Shown piece after piece: positions 697 to 63,663 of a stretch of 64,000 bases of DNA. The DNA comes from Eledone cirrhosa (taxonomy: Eukaryota): contig OZ024742.1 of assembly GCA_964016885.1 (NCBI GenBank), positions 119,784,001-119,848,000 of the forward strand, given 5' to 3'. The stretch's first letter is position 1, and every line of letters begins with the position of its first letter. The notes under the pieces are model-generated. The model was not told where the DNA came from. It was given only the letters and a program-made list of their open reading frames with translations, and did no database searches. The translations under genes were made by a program, and so were the position numbers.

Positions 697-768
697 TTTT
701 CGAAAGAAGCAAGTTTTGTCAGCTGTTTTAATGACACATTTGTGCAAGCTAATTACAGAAATAAAAAG
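697..768 (+). CDS. CACNA2D: alpha-2/delta calcium channel subunit, local exon 1 (VWA domain): FSKEASFVSCFNDTFVQANYRNKK
   Basis: ttttttccAG acceptor and GTTAGT donor; 72 nt, phase 0-0. Resembles vertebrate alpha2delta-1 [23 protein letters not shown] (recalled). Confidence 0.93.
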
Positions 769-2791: not shown

Positions 2792-2881
2792 ATACTTACA
2801 AAGGCTGTGGAAAATCTTACAGCAAGGGATATGGCAAATTTTAAGAGGGGATTTGAATTTGCTTTTAAAGAATTTGAAAAG
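2792..2881 (+). CDS. CACNA2D: alpha-2/delta local exon 2 (VWA): ILTKAVENLTARDMANFKRGFEFAFKEFEK
   Basis: ctAG acceptor, GTACGG donor; 90 nt, phase 0-0. Matches [28 protein letters not shown] of alpha2delta-1. Confidence 0.92.
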
Positions 2882-4710: not shown

Positions 4711-4836
4711 TTCAGGAATAAGTCTAAACAAAATGGAGTAGGAGCTCAATGCAATGAAGTTATTATGTTACTTACTGATGGTGGGACAGATAATGCTAAA
4801 GATGTTTTTGATAAATATAATTGGCCAAATAAGACG
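4711..4836 (+). CDS. CACNA2D: alpha-2/delta local exon 3 (VWA, MIDAS Asp): FRNKSKQNGVGAQCNEVIMLLTDGGTDNAKDVFDKYNWPNKT
   Basis: ttatAG acceptor, GTATGT donor; 126 nt, phase 0-0. Contains the family hallmark CN.xIML.TDG..F.KYNW. Confidence 0.96.
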
Positions 4837-4967
4837 GTATGTATATTTTCTTACATTGGGAAGGCAGCATTTTAAAACTCATTTCTTGTTGTTTAACCAC
4901 AATTCAAACCTGATTGAACAAACCTATGATCAAAGGTTTTCCAGTCATAACCATCATATCTGTTTTT

Positions 4968-5657
4968 AATATATTGTATATCTAGGTCCACATTTACCAA
5001 TACAGTCCTCTTCCTATTTTAATATACAGTATATCTAGGTCCACATTTACCAATACAGTCCTCTTCCTGTTTTAATATACAGTATATCTAGGTCCACATT
5101 TACCAATACAGTCCTCTCCCTGTTTTAATATACAGTATATCTAGGTCCACATTTACCAATACAGTCCTCTTCCTGTTTTAATATACAGTATATCTAGGTT
5201 CACATTTACCAATACAGTCCTCTTCCTGTTTTAATATACAGTATATCTAGGTTCACATTTACCAATACAGTCCTCTCCCTGTTTTAATATACAGTATATC
5301 TAGGTCCACATTCATCAATACAGTCCTCTTCCTGTTTTAATATACAGTATATCTAGGTCCACATTTACCAATACAGTCCTCTTCCTGTTTTAATATACAG
5401 TATATCTAGGTCCACATTTACCAATACAGTCCTCTTCCTGTTTTAATATACAGTATATCTAGGTCCACATTTACCAATACAGTCCTCTTCCTGTTTTAGT
5501 ATACAGTATATCTAGGTCCACATTTACCAATACAGTCCTCTTCCTGTTTTAATATACAGTATATCTAGGTCCACATTTACCAATACAGTCCTCTTCCTGT
5601 TTTAGTATATAGTATATCTAGGTCCACATTTATCAATGCAATCTTCCTTCCTTTTTT
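4968..5657 (+). repeat. 53-bp minisatellite, about 13 copies
   Basis: Unit aatatacagtatatctaggtccacatttaccaatacagtcctcttcctgtttt starts at 4968, 5021, 5074, 5127 and so on; nearly identical copies, no spacers. Confidence 0.97.
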
Positions 5658-7725: not shown

Positions 7726-7804
7726 GTAAGAGTGTTCACGTATGCTGTAGGTCCTACTGCAAATCCTACATCTGCTATACGTTGGATGGCCTGTAGTAAT
7801 CGAG
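7726..7804 (+). CDS. CACNA2D: alpha-2/delta local exon 4 (VWA): VRVFTYAVGPTANPTSAIRWMACSNR(G)
   Basis: taaAG acceptor, GTAATC donor; 79 nt, phase 0-1. VRVFTY.VG...WMAC.N motif. Confidence 0.96.
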
Positions 7805-8525: not shown

Positions 8526-8575
8526 GATATTTTTCACAGATTCCAGCTATGGGTGCTATACGATCCAAAGTTCAA
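8526..8575 (+). CDS. CACNA2D: alpha-2/delta local exon 5 (end of VWA): (G)YFSQIPAMGAIRSKVQ
   Basis: ttttcAG acceptor, GTAAGT donor; 50 nt, phase 1-0, completing the Gly codon split from exon 4. Matches GYYYEIPSIGAIRINTQ. Confidence 0.95.
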
Positions 8576-12365: not shown

Positions 12366-12449
12366 CACTATATAGGAGTTCTAGCTCGACCTTTGGCCCT
12401 TAATCATTCTGAATACATCAAGTGGGCTGGGGTTTACCAGGATAGCCAT
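12366..12449 (+). CDS. CACNA2D: alpha-2/delta alternative exon 6A: HYIGVLARPLALNHSEYIKWAGVYQDSH
   Basis: tattccAG acceptor, GTAAGC donor; 84 nt, phase 0-0. Matches EYLDVLGRPMVL...VQWTNVYLDAL. Confidence 0.93.
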
Positions 12450-15430: not shown

Positions 15431-16210
15431 TGTATATATAAGTTGTGTAATGTTTGTATTAAATAAATATACATTAATCAGTATATATATATATATATAT
15501 AGTAGATATGTGTGTAACTACAGTTATATGCAGTTCACTGGTTAAAGCACTCAATATTGTTACAAGGGTTCATCTCATGTGAGGTTTATATTTCAATATA
15601 CTCCAGGATTAAGGCAACTGTAATATGCAGAGTGTAAATACAGGTAAGCAGGAACAAAGTCAAAGTTGCACCATAAATAAATGTGCCTATGAACTTGAAC
15701 TCACATATCCAATGAGATGTTGATGTGAAGTCGAGCCCCGATTATGATCAGAACCTGGGCTGATCAATATCAAAACAATTGTTATCTGCAATAAAGTTTA
15801 TTTATCACAATTGTTTTGATATTGATCAGCCCAGGTTCTGATCATAATCGGGGCTCGACTTCACATCAACATCTCATTGGATATGTGAGTTCAAGTTCAT
15901 AGGCACATTTATTTATGGTGCAACTTTGACTTTGTTCCTGCTTACCTGTATTTACACTCTGCATATTACAGTTGCCTTAATCCTGGAGTATATTGAAATA
16001 TAAACCTCACATGAGATGAACCCTTGTAACAATATTGAGTGCTTTAACCAGTGAACTGCATATAACTGTAGTTACACACATATCTACTATATATATATAT
16101 ATAGTTATTTAATGTATATTTATTTATAGATATATATAGTTATTTAATGTATATTTACTTATAGATATATATAGTTATTTAATACAAACATTACACAACT
16201 TATATATACA
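15431..16210. repeat. long palindrome (foldback)
   Basis: 15500-15782 is the reverse complement of 15807-16089 with no mismatch seen and a 24-nt spacer. Outer arms 15431-15465 and 16176-16210 also pair. Confidence 0.95.
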
Positions 16211-19423: not shown

Positions 19424-19498
19424 GAGTTTTTGAAGCATATGGGTTTTCCAGAAGATGACACTGAACAATTTCATTGGTCTCTTGGACTAGATCGTTCG
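19424..19498 (+). CDS. CACNA2D: alpha-2/delta candidate divergent alternative exon 6B: EFLKHMGFPEDDTEQFHWSLGLDRS
   Basis: ttacctacAG acceptor, TCG|GTAACA donor; 75 nt, phase 0-0, open. Starts E-F-L like E-Y-L, has G-x-P at the G/S-R-P position, then Trp and a D-x-x end. Higher GC than its flanks. Confidence 0.6.
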
Positions 19499-20976
19499 GT
19501 AACATTTAATACTTATATAGCTGGTGAAATTTATAAGTTTAGGGTTGCTTCTACTGCTGCAAATACCCACTGTTTTCTTTTAAAGAAATGTTAATGTTTT
19601 TTTTTCTCTTCTGCTAAAATGAACATTGGCATGTCTTCTCAGTCTATAAGAATCATTAACTTCTTTAGAAATGTTTTAGTAAATAATATTTCTTTCATAT
19701 ATTTCATAAAACTAAGAATACACTACCATATAAGGCTATAATGATGTAAACTTTTCTCAAATATACACAACCAGTAAAATGTTTCAGATAAATTATTTTG
19801 AATATGAATAAGTTTCTTCCCTGAAGACCTTCTGGTGTCCAGTTCTCCTGAGAGTTTGTTACCACAGCACTAATTTTACCTTTCAACAAAGTAATGAAAG
19901 GTAAAGTTTGTGTAACTGAGATTTAAAATCAAATCAAATTACCCATGTATTCACATAGATATATATATGCAAATTTCTGTAAATACATGGCACAACATTA
20001 AGTTTAAAATGTATTTATTATATATATTTGTACATTATTTGAGAAAAATGAACACATAGTTCCTTACTGTATGTTAATTGTATTCTTTGTTTGGTCTGCT
20101 AGAAAATACAGATGATTATTCTAATTGATTTATAAAACTGTAATGGCATGGTGGAATTGCTTTCAGGATTATTATTCAAATATTATGAAATTGTGCACAT
20201 TTGACTGGGTGTGATAATTTTTGGTGGTGGATATTTGATAGTCATCATAATTTAGTAGCTTCTCTGAAACTAAACGTAATTATATGCATATTAAAAAAAT
20301 ATTTCTGTATCTTCTATTTATCTATTCATCATTGCTTCTTCTTTTATCATTACAAAAAGGATCATGATCAACTTTTAAAACATTTTGACTCAAATTGGTT
20401 TCAGTTCAAAATAAGGTTCCAGCATTGAATTGTTGTACATAATATGAAATAAAATATTCAGTGTCTTCCCTAGAACACAATACATTGCTGGCAAAGTGGT
20501 ACAAACTTATGATTCTTCAGTTACAATCTAATCTCTATTCACAGTCATTGCAAACCTTCATGAATTTTCTCACTCATTTTAACTTTTTGGAGACATATTG
20601 TATTGTTACCTTACTATACTGCTTTACTTTATATCCATTGCAGTATTTAGTCTTATCTTTTTATGTTTTGACTGCATCATATGATTATTGGCAAAATGAA
20701 ACAGGCACCAGGTATGCTGAGATTGTGTATGAACTGATCAGTTAGGTAATACATCTATTTTGAAAGGTCAATTTGGTCATACACTGAACTTTTGTCTTAC
20801 GTTGAAATATTAGTTAAGAGTTAGTGACTTGATTGATAAACAAAACTGTCAAGAAACTAATGACTTATTTGGTAGTTATAGTTATTATTTATATTGAATT
20901 TTTTATCCCTCGAATGAATAAATACAACTCAGACTTTAAATCCTATATGTAAACAGACTAGTTTATTAGTTATATT

Positions 20977-21260
20977 TGTGTAGCTTTCTCTAGACAAAGG
21001 GAAGTAGCTGGAGTTACTTCCTGTTGAATTCTAGGTAGGAATTATAAAAGAGGGAGAAAAGAGACATCTTAGCCTTTTGGCGACCGGCTCTCGGACAGTT
21101 CACTCACGAGCGAGTTTGGTATAATCTTATATCTGTATCGAATTAAATTAGTGGTTGGCCTGCAGTGGTGTTTACCAAAGTAAATAACCCTGTGACCAAC
21201 TCACTAAAGTGGTGACCCCGACATGAGTGATGGTCTGGATGCCAGCGCAAATGGTTGGTT
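20977..21260 (+). mobile_element. LTR retrotransposon 5' remnant: LTR plus tRNA-Trp primer-binding site
   Basis: TG start, TATAAAAG box near 21044, then TGGTGACCCCGAC(A)TGA at 21210-21226, complementary to the tRNA-Trp 3' end (...TCACGTCGGGGTCACCA). Confidence 0.7.
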
Positions 21261-30504: not shown

Positions 30505-30588
30505 GAATATCTTCCTGTTCTCAGTCGACCATTGGTGCTAGACAATGCCAAACACAGTGAGTGGGTGAACATCTATTCTGACAAAATG
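30505..30588 (+). CDS. CACNA2D: alpha-2/delta alternative exon 6C: EYLPVLSRPLVLDNAKHSEWVNIYSDKM
   Basis: CTAAC branch point at 30476-30480, aaAG acceptor, ATG|GTATTT donor; 84 nt, phase 0-0. Aligns with 6A without gaps. Confidence 0.92.
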
Positions 30589-40200: not shown

Positions 40201-41179
40201 TTTTTATCATATTGCCTGTGTAACTTATTTTAGCATAATGGAATTTTTTTCTTTAGAAATAATTGGTTATTTTTTTTTTTAAGTTATTTTGAAAATATGT
40301 ATTTAATATAAGTTAAGTTCTTGGAAAAATAGATTTACAGCTATTTTAGGTAATAAACTAAACTTTAGTGATTATTTTACTTAAAATAGGTTTCAGTTTT
40401 TATCTTTTGCTTCTGTCTCATATTGGCTTGTTATTCATTATTTCTTCAGCAAATGAACTGAAAACTGATAAAATACATGGTTCATTTCATTTACATCATT
40501 TTTTTATCATGCTACTTACAATGATATCATTAAATGTGGTTTGGATGCAGCCTGTTTTTTATTACAACTGGAGCCAATGGCATTAGATTGAGAGGACAGC
40601 AAAAGAACAGACATCATCACAAGACTTCTCTTCTGGGGCATTAAATCTCTAATTGGGGATGCAATTCTTCAGTGACAACCTATTGAAATAACTCAACAGC
40701 TGACAAAGTAATGGTTGCTCTAAGACTGAACTATCTCAGTTCAATCAAGATAGAGGTAGCTATTCATAAGAAAGAGACCAATGAAGTGAAATGGCTCTTC
40801 AGATATTGCTCACCATTTTTCTTCACTATTTTGTCAGCTGGGACCATGAAACAGTTGCCTGATATTCTGTGATATAATAAAATCCTTTTAAAAACAGAAT
40901 GTCTCATGAAAAAACCTATCAGATTTATTGAGACAATTTAACATATTTTCTTATGTATCAAAAGGAAAATATATTCAATTAAAACAAAATGGTTATGATA
41001 TTTAATTAAAAGGCTAATGAATTTTTGATTAATCAACATATATGTAAAAAACAAATTTAGTATAATATAATGTAGCTTTAAAAAGTAAATACATTTCATC
41101 AGAATAACTATAGTAGTAATATTACTTAACGCTTCTTCATTAAAACCTACTTTAAACTAAATATTTATTATTAGTATCT

Positions 41180-41181
41180 AC

Positions 41182-41235
<54 letters not shown>

Positions 41236-41821
41236 GTGTGTGTATATATATGTGTGTATATATATGTATATATATATATATGTGTGTGTATATATATGTA
41301 TATATATATATATGTGTGTATATATATATGTATATATATATATATATGTGTGTATATATATATATATATGTGTATATATATATACATATATGTATATGTA
41401 TATATATATGTATATATGTATATATATATATGTATATATGTATATATATATATATATATATGTATATGTATATATATGTATATATATGTATATGTGTATA
41501 TAATGTATATATATGTATATGTATATATATATATATGTATATATGTATATGTATATGTATATATGTATATATATATATGTATATGTATATGTATATATAT
41601 ATATATGTATATGTATATATATATATATGTATATGTATATATATAAATATGTATATGTATATATAAATATGTATATGTATATATATATATGTGTATATAT
41701 ATATATGTATATATATGTATATGTATATATATATGTATATGTATATATATATGTATATATATCTATGTATATGTATATATATCTATGTATATATATCTAT
41801 GTATATATATATATATCTATG

Positions 41822-41858
<37 letters not shown>

Positions 41859-41904
41859 CTATATATATCTATGTATATATATATATATATATGTATATGT
41901 ATAT

Positions 41905-41936
<32 letters not shown>

Positions 41937-42079
41937 GTATATGTATATGTATATATATATATGTGTATGTATATATATATATTTATACATATATATGTAT
42001 ATATGTATATATATGTGTATGTATATATATATATTTATACATATATATGTATATATGTATATATATATATATGTATATG

Positions 42080-42110
<31 letters not shown>

Positions 42111-42325
42111 GTATATGTGTATATATATATATGTATATATATATATTTATATATATATATATATTTGTATATATATATGTATATATATATTTATATATAT
42201 ATATGTATATATATATTTATATATATATATGTATATGTATATATTTATATGTATATGTATATATTTATATGTATATGTATATATGTATATATATATGTAT
42301 ATATGTATATATATATATTTATATG

Positions 42326-42356
<31 letters not shown>

Positions 42357-42387
42357 GTATATGTATATATATGTATATATTTATATG

Positions 42388-42450
<63 letters not shown>

Positions 42451-42479
42451 GTATATATATATATGTATATATATATATG

Positions 42480-42578
<99 letters not shown>

Positions 42579-42598
42579 GTATATATAATATATATATG

Positions 42599-42631
<33 letters not shown>

Positions 42632-42640
42632 GTATATATA
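41180..42640. repeat. (TA)n/(TATG)n compound microsatellite
   Basis: Seen directly in the sequence. Confidence 0.98.
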
Positions 42641-43200
42641 AAATCAGCAGTGGGGGAGGGTGCTCTGAAAGTACAGTAGCTAGAGTCAGAACTGGTTGGA
42701 AAAAGTTCAGAGAGCTTATACCACTATTAGCTGCTAAAGGGTTCTCCCTAAAAATGAAAGGCAGGTTGTACGATGCCTGCATACGTACAGCAATGTTGCA
42801 TGGTAGGGAGACCTGGGCATTGTGTGCAGAGGATATACGCAGACTAGAGAGGAACGAAGCTTGCATGCTCCGCTGGATGTGTAACAGTAATATACGTGAA
42901 CGGCAAAGCATAAACGAACTAAGGAAAAAATTAGAAATAAGAGGGATCAGATGTTGTTTACTCGAGAGAAGGCTACGTTGGTATGGACACGTGATGCGCA
43001 TGAAAGTCGATAGCTGTATAACAAAGTGCAGGGCAATAAAGATAGACGGTAGCCACGGAATAGGCAGACCTAGAAAAACCTGGGACGAGCTGATAAACTC
43101 CGACCTCACACACTTACACCTCTCCAAGACAATGTCACTGGACCGAGACCTTTGGCGGTACTCAGTAACAGAGAAGACCCGCCTTACCTAAATACATAGT
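42641..43200 (+). mobile_element. 5'-truncated RTE LINE
   Basis: Open frame [29 protein letters not shown]...MLHGRETW...[11 protein letters not shown]...GRPRKTW. Confidence 0.92.
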
Positions 43201-43309
43201 AAAACCTACTACAGCCAGTAGGCATCTCTAACAAAATAGACCCCCCACCCCACCCCCACCCCACCCCATCCACACCACCCCGTACTATGTAAAGTTATGT
43301 TGGTGTCGC

Positions 43310-43575
43310 GCCATCCAGGCCGAAACAAATGAGATCGTGTAGGTGTCACGACAAAAAAACACACAGTCCACGCTGTAATGTGGCCGTGTAGGCAACACGC
43401 TAAAAACCTCCCAGACCCACACTGTAAATGTGGTTGGTGTTAGGAAGGGCATCCAACTGTAGCAAACCTGCCAGACAGTCCTATGCGAGCAAGACAATCA
43501 CTCTTGCCTCAAGTGGGACTACCCCCGTCCAAACCCATGCAAGCGTGGAACACGGACGTTAAACGTTGATTATGA
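43310..43575 (+). mobile_element. SINE-like repeat with RTE-type tail
   Basis: cacactgtaaatgtggttggtgttaggaagggcatccaactgtag...gcaagcgtggaacacggacgttaaa; core shared with 43690-44030 and 60830-61115. Confidence 0.7.
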
Positions 43576-43648
43576 TGATATGTATATATATATATGTATA
43601 TATATATATGTATATATATATGTATATATATATGTGTATATATATATG

Positions 43649-43682
<34 letters not shown>

Positions 43683-43689
43683 TGTATAT

Positions 43690-44030
43690 GGAGGCACATG
43701 GCTTAGTGGTTAGAGCATTGGCCTTGCAATCAAAAGGTTGTGAGTTCAATTCTCAGACCGGGTGATGTGTTGTTTCCTTGAGCAAGGCACTTTATTTCAC
43801 ATTGCTCCAGTTTACTCAGCTGTAGAAATGAGATAGGGACCCCAGTCCCTATCATTCCACTGTAAAGTGGTCGTGGAGGTGCCACGGCAAAAAAGCACCC
43901 AGCACTCACTGTAAATGAGGTTGGTGTTAGGAAGGGCATCCAGCTGTAGAAATCAAGCCAGAATCAGTTCCCGTCCCACCCTTGCAAGCAGGGAAAAGTG
44001 GACGTAAAATGAGATGATGAGATGATGATG
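43690..44030 (+). mobile_element. tRNA-derived SINE with RTE-derived 3' tail
   Basis: Head ggaggcacatggcttagtggttagagc...gagttcaattc (A/B boxes). Tail matches the RTE 3' end at 63613-63655, followed by (GAT)n. Confidence 0.85.
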
Positions 44031-49500
<5,470 letters not shown>

Positions 49501-52500
49501 ACTTTGAATAACTTTGAAATGTTTTGGCCAGTATTGGCCCAGGCCATGTCTAACTTAATAGCACCACCTGGCGAAGTCTTTCAATTCAGGATTTGGGCAC
49601 CATGGCCCATTCGAGAAGAGAATTACTGTTTGCGGAGACATATCCGGGTGTGGGTGGTTTGTCCGGGATTACTTGGAGGAATTTGTCCAAAGACTTCTTG
49701 AATTTTGTGTGGTCAGTTTCTGTTTTGACGTGTCCTGGTGTGATGTTGAAGAGAGCAGGGCCGATTGAGGTGAAATAATTGTGCCGTATTGTTGTTATGA
49801 GTTGCGATTTAGATTTTTGAATGGGACGGATAGCACGGGGCCCAAGCCTTGGGTGTATCTTGAAGGCGATGCCAACATCATTTGGGCAGTGATGATGGAA
49901 CATTTTCCACATCATGCAGATAATATAACGCTCACGGCGACGTTGGAGTGAGTAAAGTTTCAGGTTTTCCAATCGACCCCAGTAGTCAAGGTCTGACATG
50001 CCATCTATCTTTTTCGTGATTGCCCTTTGAGGAGCTTCAAGTTTCATGATACTTTGTTTCGTGTGGGGAGACCACAGTGGACAACAGTATTCAAGGTGTG
50101 GTCGGGCGAAAGTAGAGAAGAGAAGGATAATGGTGCGGGAATCTCTCGACTGGAAGGTTCTGAGGATCCAGGAACACATTCTGCGGGCCATGTCAACTTT
50201 GCTGCTTATATGCGTGGTCCAGCTTATGTTGCTGTCCACGGTTACTCCCAAGTCTCTGATGTTGTTAGATGCCACGAGAGTTTCCCCGGAGGGAAGGGAG
50301 TACGGGAGTTTCAGAGCATCCTCTTTTCCAAAGTGGATCAGTTCGAATTTGTCTTCGTTCAGTAACATGTTGTTCTTTTCTGCCCATTGGGTAACAGCCA
50401 GTAGGTCTGACTGAAGGCTTATCCGGTCATCCACGCCATTGATGACCTTTTGGAGCTTGGAATCATCAGCGAAAATTTTAATGTTGCTGTGTTTGATGAT
50501 GTCAGTGATGTCATTAATATAGATGATGAAGAGAAGTGGGCCCAACACAGTGCCTTGTGGGACTCCACTACTGACTTTGGCTGATTTGACTCCCTCAACT
50601 ACAACATGTTGGGTTCTGTTTGACAGGAAGCTCTTGATCCACTGCAGCAGCTTTCCAGTGACACCAATATTGGACAGCTTTCTCAGTAGAATGTTATGAT
50701 CAACCCTGTCAAAGGCCTTGCTGAAATCAAGGTAGATAACATCAGTGTTGGAACCCTCTCCCAAGGCTCTCAAAATGTCATCAAAGTGATGCAGTAGTTG
50801 CGTCAGGCAATCCCTTCCATTACGGAATCCATGCTGGTTGGAGTTCAGCATATTGTTACTCTCAAGGAAGTGGGTCATTCGCGATCTCACCACTCGCTCA
50901 AATACCTTAATCATATGAGAGGTGAGTGAGATTGGACGGTAATTCACGGCAAGGGATTTGTTTCCCTTTTTGAAAACTGGGACAACAGACTGGGATAGAA
51001 GGTTTTCTGGCACATATCCAGCATCCAGTGAGTTCCGCCACAGATTGGCAAGAGGAGAAGCAAGTTGGTGTTGACACGCCTTCAAGACACAAGCAGGGAA
51101 CCTATCGGGACCTACTGCTGAATTATGCTTGATTTCCTTTATTGCCGCCAAGACATCAGGGGCGCCAAACGTTATGTCCGATAAGGTGTAATGGGGAGTA
51201 ACATCGCCGATACAGCCCAGATCGGCCATATCAGGATTGCTGAAAACAGAGCAGTATTGTTTCTGCAGTATCTCACCCATGGTTTTAGCATTGTCTTGAA
51301 GAGTGCCATTTTCATCAATTAGAGGGCCAACAGTAGAGCCAGTGATTTTGTGTTTTTTTGCAAATGAAAAGAACACTTTGGGATTGAGTTTGATCTTCTC
51401 AATGGCCCAGGCCTCTTCAGCTCTTCTCTGATTGTTGATGAGGGACATTATGTTGTTTTGGAGGTTATGTTTTTTAATCTCTAGTGATGAAATGGCAGTC
51501 AAGTTGATGTGTTGCTGCTGACAGTATTTCAGATTGTTGATTTTTTTGTTCGTTCTCTTAATTTTTCTGATGAGCGTTTTTCTATTTCTAGGGATTCTGC
51601 TCTTAGATTTGTTTATAGTTCTTAATGGGGTGTGTTTAGCACATATGTTTGTAACAGTGTCCACAAATGTCTGCCAGGATTTTTTGATGTTAGTGGGTGT
51701 ATGAGTGTGCGTGAAGGACCAGTCGACATGTGCAAGATCATGACTGATCGCTTCCCAGTTTGCATTGTGGAAATCCATAGCGTCAAACGGATGGACAGGA
51801 GAAATGACATTGGGTTTGTATATTGGACGGTGGAATCTCAGATCACAGAGAACCATGTCATGATCAGAGAGTAGAGTTTTCTCCACTGCAATATTGTGGA
51901 TATTGTCAGTGTGATTGCTGAAAATTAAGTCTAGGACGTTTTTGTGGCACCTCGTTGGTTCGAGCACTAGTTGGGATAGGAAGAAATCATCCATGAAGTC
52001 AAGAAGCGATTCCACAGCTTCCCTGTCAGAGGTTGAGGCAGAAGAACCTGGTGGCAGGGTGTTTGTGGACCAGTCAACTCCGGGGAGGTTGAAGTCCCCC
52101 ATCATTAAGATGTTGTCAGGGTGACACTCTTGGATGAAACACTTTATGCTGTTGAGGCATTCCTTGAAGCATGGTACAGGCGTTTGGGGTGGCCTATAGA
52201 GCCCAACTACTAATAGGTTGTTGGTTTGACTGAATACAGTGACTGCCTCACAGTATCCATTAGTGAATATGTTCATAGCCTCTGTTGAGAAAGAATTATG
52301 GACATAAATGGCAGTTCCGCCCTTTCTTCTGCCAGCGCGATCAGCACGGATGGCTTTGAAATTTTTCACTTTCACCTCGGCTTCCAAGTGGAGGTTACTG
52401 AGATGGGTTTCAGTGAGGACGAAGAAAGGGATGTGGTTTGGATGGACATCAATCCAGTCCTCCAGGAATTTGATCTTCCATTTTTGAGTATTGGTGGAAG

Positions 52501-52633
52501 GGCTGATGCCTTGGGCGTTAAGCAAAAATGTAGAGGCGAGAGTGGATGGTTTTAATTGTTTTGGTGTGTTGTTAATTTGTTTGTTTGTTAATGGCAGCAA
52601 TGGGAGTTTGTGCAGTGGGGTGATAGTGGAGGG

Positions 52634-52635
<2 letters not shown>
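49501..52635 (-). mobile_element. CR1/L2-group LINE with an uninterrupted ORF2 (APE endonuclease plus reverse transcriptase)
   Basis: About 1015 codons without a stop, ending at 49586. APE motifs LNAQG, LTETHL, YRPP, GDFN, LDL, SDH. RT motifs NYRPISLTS, QHGFR, YLDFSKAFD, GVPQGTVLGP, FADD. C-terminal LQRRRERY. Short 3' UTR ends in ttcaaagt repeats. Confidence 0.95.
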
Positions 52636-52688
<53 letters not shown>

Positions 52689-52719
52689 GTATATATATAT
52701 GTATATATATACATATATA

Positions 52720-53292
52720 TCCAGTACAACCTGTCCCATGGTCGGGTCGTTGGCGACTAAACTGGCAACCCCACCAAGGTTTCTTGGTGAGGAGGGTGAC
52801 TTTGGACATCCTGCAGGACTAAAAACAAAACCTGTCAAAGGGCAAAGGAGCTCTTAAGAGTCAATGGCCATCCAAAATCACCGGGAGAGATGACCCCTTA
52901 GCCTTTGTCAAGGCAGAATTCTAGGAGAAGGAAAACTCTGATATAACACCTGCAACCCTGATGGTATCCAATGATGTTGACTTGTTCTTCTTTTTGGTAA
53001 ATATCATCTTGGTTAAGAGAGTGGGACTGGCTTTGTGCAGTGCCTTTGCTCACTATAAAAGCTTCACGGCACAGGCATTGCTTTATATCTGGAGATCTCT
53101 CTGCACTTGTCGTCACATGGTACCATGGGCCCAGCACTATGTGTCAGTAATTGTCACAAGTGTAGTGTTTGTACCAGAGTTTTCAAGTCGCTGGCTGGAC
53201 TAAAAAGTCACACTCGTTCAGCGCATCGGTAGGGGTTCTCCTACATGGATATAAAGTAGTGGCCGTACTCGAAAACGAGTTGGCAGCCACCA
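52720..53292 (+). mobile_element. non-autonomous retroelement (probably RTE-derived), copy 1
   Basis: Contains ctaggagaaggaaaactctga, which I recall from RTE 5' UTRs. No coding frame, flanked by (TA)n, near-identical inverted copy at 61905-62306. Confidence 0.65.
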
Positions 53293-54940
<1,648 letters not shown>

Positions 54941-57864
54941 CTCACCACTTAAAAGCTGAAAATTAGACTTTGTACATTGTTTATATATTATTAGATTATA
55001 GAGTTTTAATAAACAACTTAAATGTAATTTAATTGTTGATATGTTGTTTTTTCTGTGATGTAGCAGCTTTTAGTAAAATTTGATTGCTGATTTGCCTTTC
55101 TGTATATCTTACAATATTTGATTCCATATAAATTACAACTAATACATCATATTATTTATATCTCTTTTAGCCATTGTAAGTGAAATTTTTGTTTTAAAAT
55201 ATCTGATGTTTTTATGAAAATGTTTAATTTATATTTCAGATGTATTTTGTCTTATTAAAATTCTGTATTTAAGTTTTATGCTGTATTCTGAATTGTTTTT
55301 AACAATATAAAAAGTTATGCTAAATTATATATAAAGGGTAAAACTGTTATTCCAAGCATTTCTATAATCAGCATCATTGTCACATCAACAGTATTATTTA
55401 TTTGTTGCTGCTAATGATTTATAAAAATTTATAAGAAACTTGAAATCATTGATTCATTAATCCAATAACATGTTAACATCACATAACAACATTGGTTGAA
55501 ATTAGTATAACTGTTACTCCAGGACAAAACAAAATCAACAAATAGATGATAAGAGTGACTTTTGCCAAACCATAAATTGCTCAGCATTGATACAGAACTG
55601 TATAATCTTTCCAAAGAATATTAAGATTAAGAAGTATGGACAGCTTTCTACTATACTAAAATAATCTATTTAGATATGACATCATAAATAAATGAGTCAG
55701 ACTAAAAAGTTCAGTGAGAACAAGAACACTTTGAACAAGGGACTTTGAGCCTATGTTCGATAATTACTGTCATAAGAGGTGGCTCAAAATTCCAGCTGAA
55801 CTCATTGTAAAGATTGTCTTTTGGAAAGGATAGTAAGGTGGATGCTACAAAAAAGAGTGATATAAAGAATAACACTGAAAAGTTTAAGGATTGGCTTTTA
55901 CTTTCAAACAACATTTTTATCATATATTTCTTCAAGCAATATTTGAAGATACAGTTGAGGGGAGAGGTCTGTGTTCAAGTACATATGAAAATTTAAATAC
56001 ATATTATGAGAAATGTATGAAATGGTCTCTTAAATATGACACAAGGCAATATTTGCTTAGCTCATCATTTCAGGTTGCTTGATCCTCATTCCTTTTCTTT
56101 TTCTTTTGGGATATATTAATTAATGTTATACCAGATGTTTCTACTGTGTTTTGTTATTGTAACAGCCTGGTCTGGTTCTTTGTAATATTTTCTTTTAGTG
56201 GGGATTATGACATAAAATATTTCTGTATTTCTATTATAATTAATAAATTAGTGTTACATATATATAAATAGTTATAACCATTAATATATGATACTTATGT
56301 ACCAAGTCAAGCATTAACTGACACTAATTAGTGGAAGATAACAGATATGTATCACTTCCACATTTCCAGTTTCATAGATGAATATTTTTGCCAAAATAAA
56401 CTATCAAACTTTTCATATATCAAGTTATGAGACCTTTCAATATATGTTGATCATATTTAGTGAAATCAATGCACAATAGTTTTGGTGTGTTATGTCTGTT
56501 ACTAGTATTTTTCCAGGGAAGAAATGCACCAATCTTTTTACTTTAGAATCTGATTATCTCATGAATATTTGGAATTAGAATTAAAAACAGTTTGGCTCAG
56601 TACTGATCCCCAGAGGAATTTTTACATTATATGAAGTATTTTTGTCATTTGATAATTGGTAGCCCAGCGTTCCATGTTTACATATTAAAATCTAAAAAAT
56701 GAATGTTCTTCTTATTAAAGTTTGAATTTAACAAATTATTAATCAAAACTAAACATGTGCAATGTATGTCTATTCTATCTAACAATCCATGTAAATACAA
56801 TATCTTTTGCTAGTTTGAATGCTTTAGCTTTTCTAATATACCATCTTATTAAACTTATCAAATTATTAACCAAATTCAATAACTGTTTAAATTATTTTTT
56901 CATATTAATATTTTTAAAATATAAAACTGATGTTTTTTTTTAGAAGTGAATTATTCTCTTAAGAGAAGCTATTCATTTACTTTGAAATTGCTTAATGAAA
57001 CATGAAGACCATAAATTATAAATTCAGTCTTCTTTGGCTTCCATCCTAGCAAGAGAGCCTTCAAAATAAATCTAAGTTCTATGAACCTGTCTGTGAGATC
57101 CAATATATTATATTTTGCATGCATAAATTTCTGATAACTATATGCTTTCTTTCTTGCTATTGAAACGGTGCCATGCATACTTATTTTCACCTTATTTACT
57201 CACATGCACATTACCTTTCTAACTGTTTAAAATTTCTATAAAATATTGTTTACTAAATTATATACAGACAATTTAAAACTAACAGTTTATTTATAACTGA
57301 ATAATACTAGATACATTTAATTACCTAACATTGTAAGAATATGATACTAACTGCTAATCATTTTCTATAACTTTTTATAATTCATATTTAAATATCTAAA
57401 TATTCTCATCAAAACCTTTTGAGAGCTACTGGTATATCACAATTACCAGAAACATTTTGTATATTTTTGAAATGTGAAATTAGCTACCAGCCATTCTTTT
57501 TACAGGGCTACTTTGCAATACTAAAGCACTTGCTAATTTCTCTAGTACAAAATTTTGATTCACTCATCTAAAGGTACCAGTTATCTCTGGTGTGATGGGA
57601 ACTAGTGTTTTACAATTACATTATCATGTATTTATTAGCTTAATATAAGTTACTATAACTTAGCTTGGAACATAAAATAATATGTCTAAACATTATTGAA
57701 AGTTTTCATTTCAAATATTTTTATATATTTATTTTTGTTTTGTAAATTAAAATATTGTTAATCCTAAACATACAATTTATAAAATATTTGTTTATATTCT
57801 AAATATATTTTCATGATTAATTAGTGTTATCTGTTTCCCCAATATTTTAATGTTTATCTTTCAG

Positions 57865-57921
57865 GGGTTAGGCATGGTAACAACTGTAACGTTACCTGTA
57901 TATAACCGAACCTTAGGAGCC
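57865..57921 (+). CDS. CACNA2D: alpha-2/delta local exon 7 (dCache): GLGMVTTVTLPVYNRTLGA
   Basis: tctttcAG acceptor, GTAAGT donor; 57 nt, phase 0-0. Matches ELGLVITGTLPVFN. Confidence 0.95.
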
Positions 57922-58766: not shown

Positions 58767-58844
58767 AACAATCAGACAATTCTTGGAGTGATGGGAGTCG
58801 ACATAACAACAGATGATATGTTAAAGAAAATTGAAAGGAATAAA
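58767..58844 (+). CDS. CACNA2D: alpha-2/delta local exon 8: NNQTILGVMGVDITTDDMLKKIERNK
   Basis: ctttcAG acceptor, GTATGT donor; 78 nt, phase 0-0. NQ.ILGVMGVD motif. Confidence 0.96.
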
Positions 58845-61320: not shown

Positions 61321-61395
61321 CTTGGGCCTCTCGGATATGCTTTTGCTATCAATCGAAATGGCTATGTTGTATTTCATCCAAATTTGAAAATTCCT
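61321..61395 (+). CDS. CACNA2D: alpha-2/delta local exon 9 (Cache): LGPLGYAFAINRNGYVVFHPNLKIP
   Basis: ttttttcAG acceptor, GTAAGT donor; 75 nt, phase 0-0. LG..GY.FAI..NGYV..HPNL Cache motif. Confidence 0.96.
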
Positions 61396-62970: not shown

Positions 62971-63663
62971 GATGTACAGGGAAATTAGAAAGTAGAAGTC
63001 GCATTGATAGACACATTTTTCAAATGCAGGAGGGCGCTATAGAAGTGGTTGATAGCTTCTGGTACCTAGGAGATCAGATTAGCATGGGAGGAGGGTGTTC
63101 CGAGGCCATAGTATCTAGAATAAGGACGGGTTGGAAGAAGTTTAGGGAGCTGCTTCCTCTGTTGACGAAGAAGGGTTTCTCCCTGCGTACGAAAGACCGG
63201 TTGTATGATGCCTGTGTGAGGAGCGCGATGCTGCATGGTAGTGAGACATGGGCAGCAACTGCAGAGGATATGCGACGGCTGGAGAGAAATGAGACAAGCA
63301 TGCTCCGTTGGATGTGCAGTGTAAATGTGCGTGAACGACCCAGCATAAATGTGTTGAGAGAGAAACTGTGTCTAAGAGGTATAGAATGTAGTGTACGGGA
63401 GAGGAGATTGAGGTGGTATGGACATGTGATGCACATGGAGGATGACCGATGGGTGAAGAAGTGCCAGGAATTGCCAGTTGAAGGAAGACGTGGTAGAGGT
63501 AGACCACGAAAAACATGGGCGGAGGTGGTGAGAACAGACCTCAGATCATTGAAGCTCACGGTAAAGATGACGAGGGACCGTGACGAGTGGAGAGATCCTG
63601 TGCTGAATAAGACCCGTCCCACCCTTGCAAGCAGGGAGAAGCGGACGTAAAATGATGATGATG

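Follow-up and report, generated by a model that had tools for sequence, protein, structure and literature searches.

A Tyr-lacking middle exon of a molluscan alpha2delta splice cassette in Eledone cirrhosa and its possible effect on the ligand pocket

The window, the whole 64-kb stretch of Eledone cirrhosa DNA analyzed here, contains eleven alpha2delta (CACNA2D) coding segments, all on the + strand. The first four (697..768, 2792..2881, 4711..4836, and 7726..7804) encode parts of the VWA domain, the end of which lies in the constitutive exon at 8526..8575. The donor of this exon leads in phase 0 to one of three alternatives, namely exon 6A (12366..12449, 28 aa), exon 6B (19424..19498, 25 aa), or exon 6C (30505..30588, 28 aa). 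Downstream of the cassette are a constitutive exon carrying the equivalent of T463 (57865..57921), a constitutive exon carrying the essential pocket Asp equivalent to D493 (58767..58844), and the next constitutive dCache exon (61321..61395). Window exons 2-5 and 7-9 share 80-100% identity with Octopus bimaculoides alpha2delta; exon 6A is identical at 28/28 positions to both the O. bimaculoides and the cuttlefish exon, and exon 6C at 27/28 and 25/28, respectively. The O. bimaculoides protein has the CACNA2D architecture, a Pfam VWA domain within dCache_1 followed by a second dCache and VGCC_alpha2, and matches the solved alpha2delta-1 with an E value of 3e-176. The gene in the window is an octopod CACNA2D gene, and 6B is the middle one of three versions of one exon. 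Full-length relatives were retrieved with the VWA exon at 4711..4836 as the query.

At 84, 75, and 84 nt, all three alternatives are multiples of three; each is in phase 0, and each is seen between the same flanking exons in proteins. Among the cephalopod records with the slot, 0/22 contain two copies and one contains none. Gene models with two or three copies occur in gastropods and bivalves and represent either real transcripts or model errors. In 8/26 species groups there are models (P0013 and models in the seven other groups; also P0175) in which the slot is left out entirely with the frame preserved, so that a pocket strand is missing. Steric clash is ruled out because the introns are 7 and 11 kb long. 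Docking-site pairing was also considered and rejected, as the 600-nt flanks yielded no more than four duplexes, all of them weak (-14 to -17 kcal/mol, scored without a null).

The 6A-6B intron holds a perfect 300-nt inverted repeat (15486-15785 / 15804-16103) with an 18-nt spacer, which could be a fold-back element, a source of long double-stranded RNA affecting editing or exon choice, or an assembly artefact. Very high-copy short repeat pieces lie 3' of 6B (19812-19857 and 21040-21210), and a 53-nt unit is repeated in 13 copies at 4964-5657. The intron after 6C contains a LINE-type insertion on the - strand (49586-52756), an open frame of 1056 codons with endonuclease and reverse-transcriptase-like motifs recognized by eye. 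Shorter fragments of another LINE-like element are present at 42589-43191 and 62990-63650, and degenerate microsatellite arrays, TA-rich, kilobases in length, and strongly skewed between strands, extend over 41150-49550 and 53200-54950.

Exon 6B is an open 75-nt frame bounded by AG and GT, in phase 0 at both ends, with the translation EFLKHMGFPEDDTEQFHWSLGLDRS and an intact donor, GTAACA. As the original prediction had stated, it is three residues shorter than 6A and 6C (25 vs 28 aa), has EDD at positions 10-12 in place of L-x-L, retains Pro9 and an Asp as the third residue from its end, and lacks the conserved Tyr. The conserved R-P pair has likewise had its Arg replaced. Two finer points of the prediction needed revision. 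The E-[FY]-L start is common to 6B and 6C but not to 6A, which begins HYI, and the spacing of Trp to the terminal Asp is not kept, as Trp lies at -8 from the exon end in 6B and at -9 in 6A and 6C. No letter differs within 6B in public DNA contigs, which come from one sample that is possibly the assembly's own. Pfam searches with 6B alone or 6C alone gave no match.

When 6B was used as a query together with the in-frame sequence flanking it, the search returned a single protein, O. bimaculoides RefSeq isoform X3 (XP_052825062.1). In this isoform and in one older model, 6B is joined to both neighboring exons. A 24-residue copy, joined to the preceding exon, is found in Sepia pharaonis and in two proteins of the same cluster. 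The proposed check for conservation in other cephalopods was borne out: 6B is identical at 18/25 positions to the O. bimaculoides exon and at 15/25 to the cuttlefish exon, with scores of 89 and 78, against 14 and 13 for the best of 1893 decoys (AG..GT frames from the window). The likeness of 6B to 6C, taken alone, is marginal (a score of 16, equalled by 2/1893 decoys). The three cephalopod copies are 24, 25, and 26 aa long, their length changes all preserve the frame, and their last eight residues are invariant, while the middle varies in both length and charge. The X3 copy resembles 6B in exon position, in 18/25 residues, and in its last ten residues, but its 26 aa include a neutral Gly/Pro-rich middle where that of 6B is acidic.

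These comparisons make it very improbable that 6B is a decaying pseudo-exon or a chance open frame. Such a reading could draw on the weak likeness of 6B to 6A and 6C and on the absence of a Pfam match for 6B; it is refuted by the conservation of the exon, seen in the 18/25 and 15/25 identities, the frame-preserving lengths, the invariant last eight residues, and the annotated isoform. The divergent isoform that had been proposed is thus real and under selection, with the Tyr loss kept in octopods and cuttlefish. The acidic loop, which had been put forward as a hallmark of the exon, did not hold up. The net charge of 6B is -4 in the window, 0 in O. bimaculoides, and -2 in cuttlefish, and in the corresponding gastropod and bivalve exons (class B, below) it ranges from -3 to +3. 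A conserved acidic loop was therefore rejected, and the charge is species-specific and incidental. Because the last eight residues are invariant while the middle varies in charge, it is the loss of Tyr, and not the acidic loop, that is under selection.

The slot corresponds to residues 427-456 of rabbit alpha2delta-1 in an alignment counted by hand, and 6B spans the end of the linker between VWA and dCache_1, a pocket strand, and the lid. Of the 13 pocket-lining residues listed in the available text of bioRxiv 2022.12.05.519047, Y452, D454, A455, and L456 fall within it. The missing Tyr aligns to Y452 and is thus, as predicted, the pocket Tyr of that list. The accessible part of the paper defining the dCache_1AA motif (PMC8915833) pairs Y452 with Y144 of PctA and describes the third motif Tyr as a contact of the ligand amino group; in PctA, mutation of Y144, among other residues, reduces AI-2 binding (PMC7584622). 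The Y452 position is Gly in 3/3 cephalopod 6B copies and Tyr in 6A and 6C, so the third Tyr of the motif is missing from the 6B form. At Y452, D454, A455, and L456, 6B has Gly, Asp, Arg, and Ser, with a one-residue gap after Trp.

Outside the exon, the motif Asp D493 is present in the window exon at 58767-58844, and the motif Arg and Trp of the N-terminal half, encoded upstream of the window, are found in 3/3 cephalopod proteins from relatives. Compared with the dCache_1AA pocket of alpha2delta-1 (PMC8915833, available text; PDB 8FD7), cephalopod alpha2delta has equivalents of R243, W245, W207, W225, D454, T463, and D493. It differs in the 6B form by Gly for Y452, Arg for A455, Ser for L456, and a shorter strand, and in every form by Tyr for V209, Met for A217, and Phe for Y238; the last of these, the first motif Tyr, is Phe in 3/3 cephalopod proteins with any exon choice. 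Tyr at V209 together with Phe at Y238 marks the gabapentin-insensitive alpha2delta-3/4 in the available text of bioRxiv 2022.12.05.519047, and these subunits accept small amino acids only, by docking, in the portion of PMC9901441 at hand. In view of this resemblance at V209, A217, and Y238, even the 6A and 6C forms may bind small amino acids only. Gabapentin binding is expected for no cephalopod isoform, so that "insensitive" must refer to a small natural ligand. That the 6B form may be ligand-insensitive in this sense, as originally proposed, has to be weighed against its retention of the R243, W245, D454, and D493 equivalents. Structures predicted with AlphaFold2 for the 6B and 6C isoforms of O. 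bimaculoides, from alignments of 45-46 rows, have pLDDT <50 over the slot in both cases and therefore say nothing about the pocket.

We surveyed the slot in 50 relatives and their cluster members and found several versions of it in annelids and a nemertean as well as in gastropods and bivalves. Their length and their order within tandem models served to sort them into classes (our own labels), with one sequence per species and class, giving 20 exons in A, 25 in B, 17 in C, and 6 in D; chiton, brachiopod, nemertean, annelid, and spider rows, slotless records, and most tandem models were left out, and the rows come from related species and are not independent. Leave-one-out scoring of a first set of 56 assigned 54 to their own class. 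In class C, Tyr at -5, Asp at -3, and Trp or Phe at -9 are found in 17/17 exons. Class B has Tyr at -5 in 0/25, Asp at -3 in 23/25, an aromatic residue at -8 in 20/25, and Pro at -2 in 23/25, giving a D-P-R/H end. The R-P pair occurs in 17/17 class C and 19/20 class A exons and in 0/25 of class B. The exon order in Elysia and Biomphalaria tandem models is A-B-C, as in the window.

Several other versions were seen in the course of this survey. A fourth, 25-residue variant (class D) occurs in oysters, a scallop, and mussels, with Tyr and Asp kept and no R-P (P0058, P0091, P0123, P0145, P0162, and P0191). Gastropod class A exons are lengthened, with His for the pocket Tyr and the Asp mostly absent (P0081, P0098, P0106, P0138, and P0184). 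One Lineus variant (P0008) lacks both the pocket Tyr and the Asp. Cephalopod 6A and 6C retain both residues. In the window, 1909 phase-0 AG..GT/GC frames of 57-105 nt were scored with profiles of classes A-D, and no fourth copy emerged.

Exon 6B carries the class B signature, with its middle rank, an aromatic residue at -8, no Tyr at -5, and Asp at -3, and is probably orthologous to the Tyr-less exon that occupies the middle position in gastropods and bivalves. It would then be an old molluscan exon rather than a cephalopod novelty. Gastropods, bivalves, and cephalopods split in the Cambrian. A tree of 72 exons and 28 columns places cephalopod 6B with class B apart from the rest (84/75, unstarred, with long branches). 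Another history, compatible with either of the functions considered below, is a cephalopod-specific duplication that came to lack the Tyr and one residue separately from class B. We consider this possible but unlikely. The class B profile gives 6B only 1.4 bits, inside the background of the 1909 frames, and 6B ends in D-R-S rather than D-P-R/H. The cuttlefish copy, unlike both octopod copies, retains R-P, and it has higher scores with C and A than with B. The mean pairwise score of 6B is 15.6 for class C and 7.5 for class B, the long branches could pull 6B toward B in the tree, the AU test gives p 0.067 for 6B with C and p 0.156 for 6B with D and so rejects neither, and bivalve class D shows that extra copies do arise. 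Against this, an independent origin requires that the old middle exon was lost and a new one gained at the same rank with the same loss of Tyr, and that the same rare Trp shift occurred twice, Trp at -8 being found in 0/101 mappable sequences of 136 diverse relatives, a count weakened by long inserts at this place in many of them. Over the last 12 residues, moreover, all three 6B copies score closest to class B.

In functional terms, the reading we favor, at about even odds, is that 6B is the middle exon of an old molluscan alpha2delta splice cassette in which the choice of exon sets one wall, that of the amino-group contacts, and the lid of the pocket, and that the 6B pocket is weakened or re-tuned. 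With 6B in place of 6A or 6C, one of two amino-group contacts would be lost and the lid reshaped; the subunit would still be full-length, with a pocket that has low affinity for amino acids or takes a different ligand. Exon choice could then set the strength or the ligand control of CaV1/CaV2 surface density in each cell type. An effect on channel density would follow because in mammals an occupied pocket is believed to promote trafficking of the channel, and 6B in particular would alter it because pocket mutants blunt channel enhancement there: in the available text of PMC12303104, mammalian pocket Arg mutants show reduced channel enhancement. A bolder form of this proposal, which we hold to be rather doubtful, is that since before snails, clams, and cephalopods diverged a three- to four-exon cassette has swapped the pocket wall and lid of alpha2delta to give different small-molecule specificities, with 6B ignoring amino acids or binding another ligand.

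Some observations count against the pocket reading of 6B. The two residues proven essential, R243 and D493, are retained and are not encoded by the exon. At the position of the pocket Arg (rabbit R243), 15/16 bivalve records (one without the region) and 3/3 cephalopod records have Arg, and gastropods retain the cassette despite having Gln there in 17/19 records (two without the region; P0036, P0037, P0051, P0052, and P0062 are among them). The gastropod Gln may also reflect a changed ligand, as the position closest to it in a bacterial amine receptor is likewise occupied by Gln (bioRxiv 2023.04.06.535858, available text). The substitution also bears on the use of snails as gabapentinoid models.

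The main rival to the pocket reading is that the exon acts as a hinge between VWA and dCache_1, with 6B changing how VWA is oriented, the contact with the channel, or an extracellular partner, and the altered pocket arising as a by-product. Linker makes up roughly two thirds of the exon, and the R-P pair follows the exon classes as described above and is absent from both octopod 6B copies. The retention of the cassette by gastropods without the pocket Arg fits such a role, as do the loss of Tyr and Asp from gastropod class A and the models that skip the whole slot. In cephalopod 6B, however, it is the linker that varies, and the pocket strand and lid that are invariant, and the Asp at the D454 position is kept in 23/25 class B exons; we therefore regard the hinge as an unlikely primary role, if one to be taken seriously. 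A further explanation, which we judge improbable, is that cephalopods use 6B as a last exon, reading through its donor to an intronic stop, so that either a short alpha2 fragment lacking an anchor is made or the transcript is non-productive. All three cuttlefish-type 6B proteins (P0018, P0022, and P0026) end within the intron, which counts against the pocket reading; they pass the donor and stop after 18 residues, as do 0/10 proteins with 6A or 6C, and two of the three records come from transcript-sized contigs. In the window the frame continues for 31 residues past the 6B donor. The three records are not independent, however, the read-through tails of the window and cuttlefish are dissimilar by eye, the donor itself is intact, and the O. 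bimaculoides models join 6B to the following exon. Read-through ends also occur after other variants (P0154, P0237, and P0291) and are expected because the introns that follow are long.

The cassette and 6B are already in print and in RefSeq, and the E. cirrhosa exon is a new orthologous copy. In its available text, PMC5818475 (2018, Fig. 1 and Table 1) reports three mutually exclusive alpha2delta exons in Aplysia, Crassostrea, and Octopus in the same VWA-Cache slot. The first and last residues printed for its Octopus entry match 6B, and its Table 1 also has an oyster D-P-R form. The original prediction that homology-based annotation would miss 6B was right insofar as profiles of non-cephalopod exons score it at background (<=1.4 bits), and wrong in that the exon had already been annotated (XP_052825062.1; PMC5818475 Table 1). 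The available text of PMC5818475 lists the site without a function or a link to the pocket, and the E. cirrhosa copy differs in its own acidic middle; a search of the supplement of PMC5818475 gave no match. In the literature covered, which includes the available text of PMC12919962 and excludes subscription papers, no paper linking the cassette to the pocket was found. What seems to be new is the suggestion that 6B swaps one pocket wall and drops a key Tyr, as the matching snail and clam exon does. Judged from the exon sequences, the loss of Tyr is more widespread than originally supposed.

The nearest mammalian parallels differ in kind. Splice regions A, B, and C of alpha2delta-1 show that splicing in the cache domain can reduce gabapentin affinity, and the paralogues alpha2delta-3/4 differ in pocket residues (PMC9901441, available text). 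These mammalian variants are cassette inserts away from the motif or separate genes, whereas the molluscan splicing swaps motif-bearing residues within one gene. Why alpha2delta retains a bacterial-type amino-acid pocket is described as an open question in the accessible parts of PMC12303104 (section 15) and PMC9901441. The value of the present analysis lies less in the exon itself than in the predicted link of a listed, little-studied cassette to this pocket. A motif-swapping cassette maintained across three mollusk classes is hard to explain unless the region is functionally tuned, and it offers natural isoforms for work in Aplysia, Lymnaea, or heterologous systems. If the bolder proposal of different small-molecule specificities is true, these isoforms would amount to a naturally occurring set of variants of the pocket, and they would demonstrate that a physiological ligand exists for the gabapentin site.
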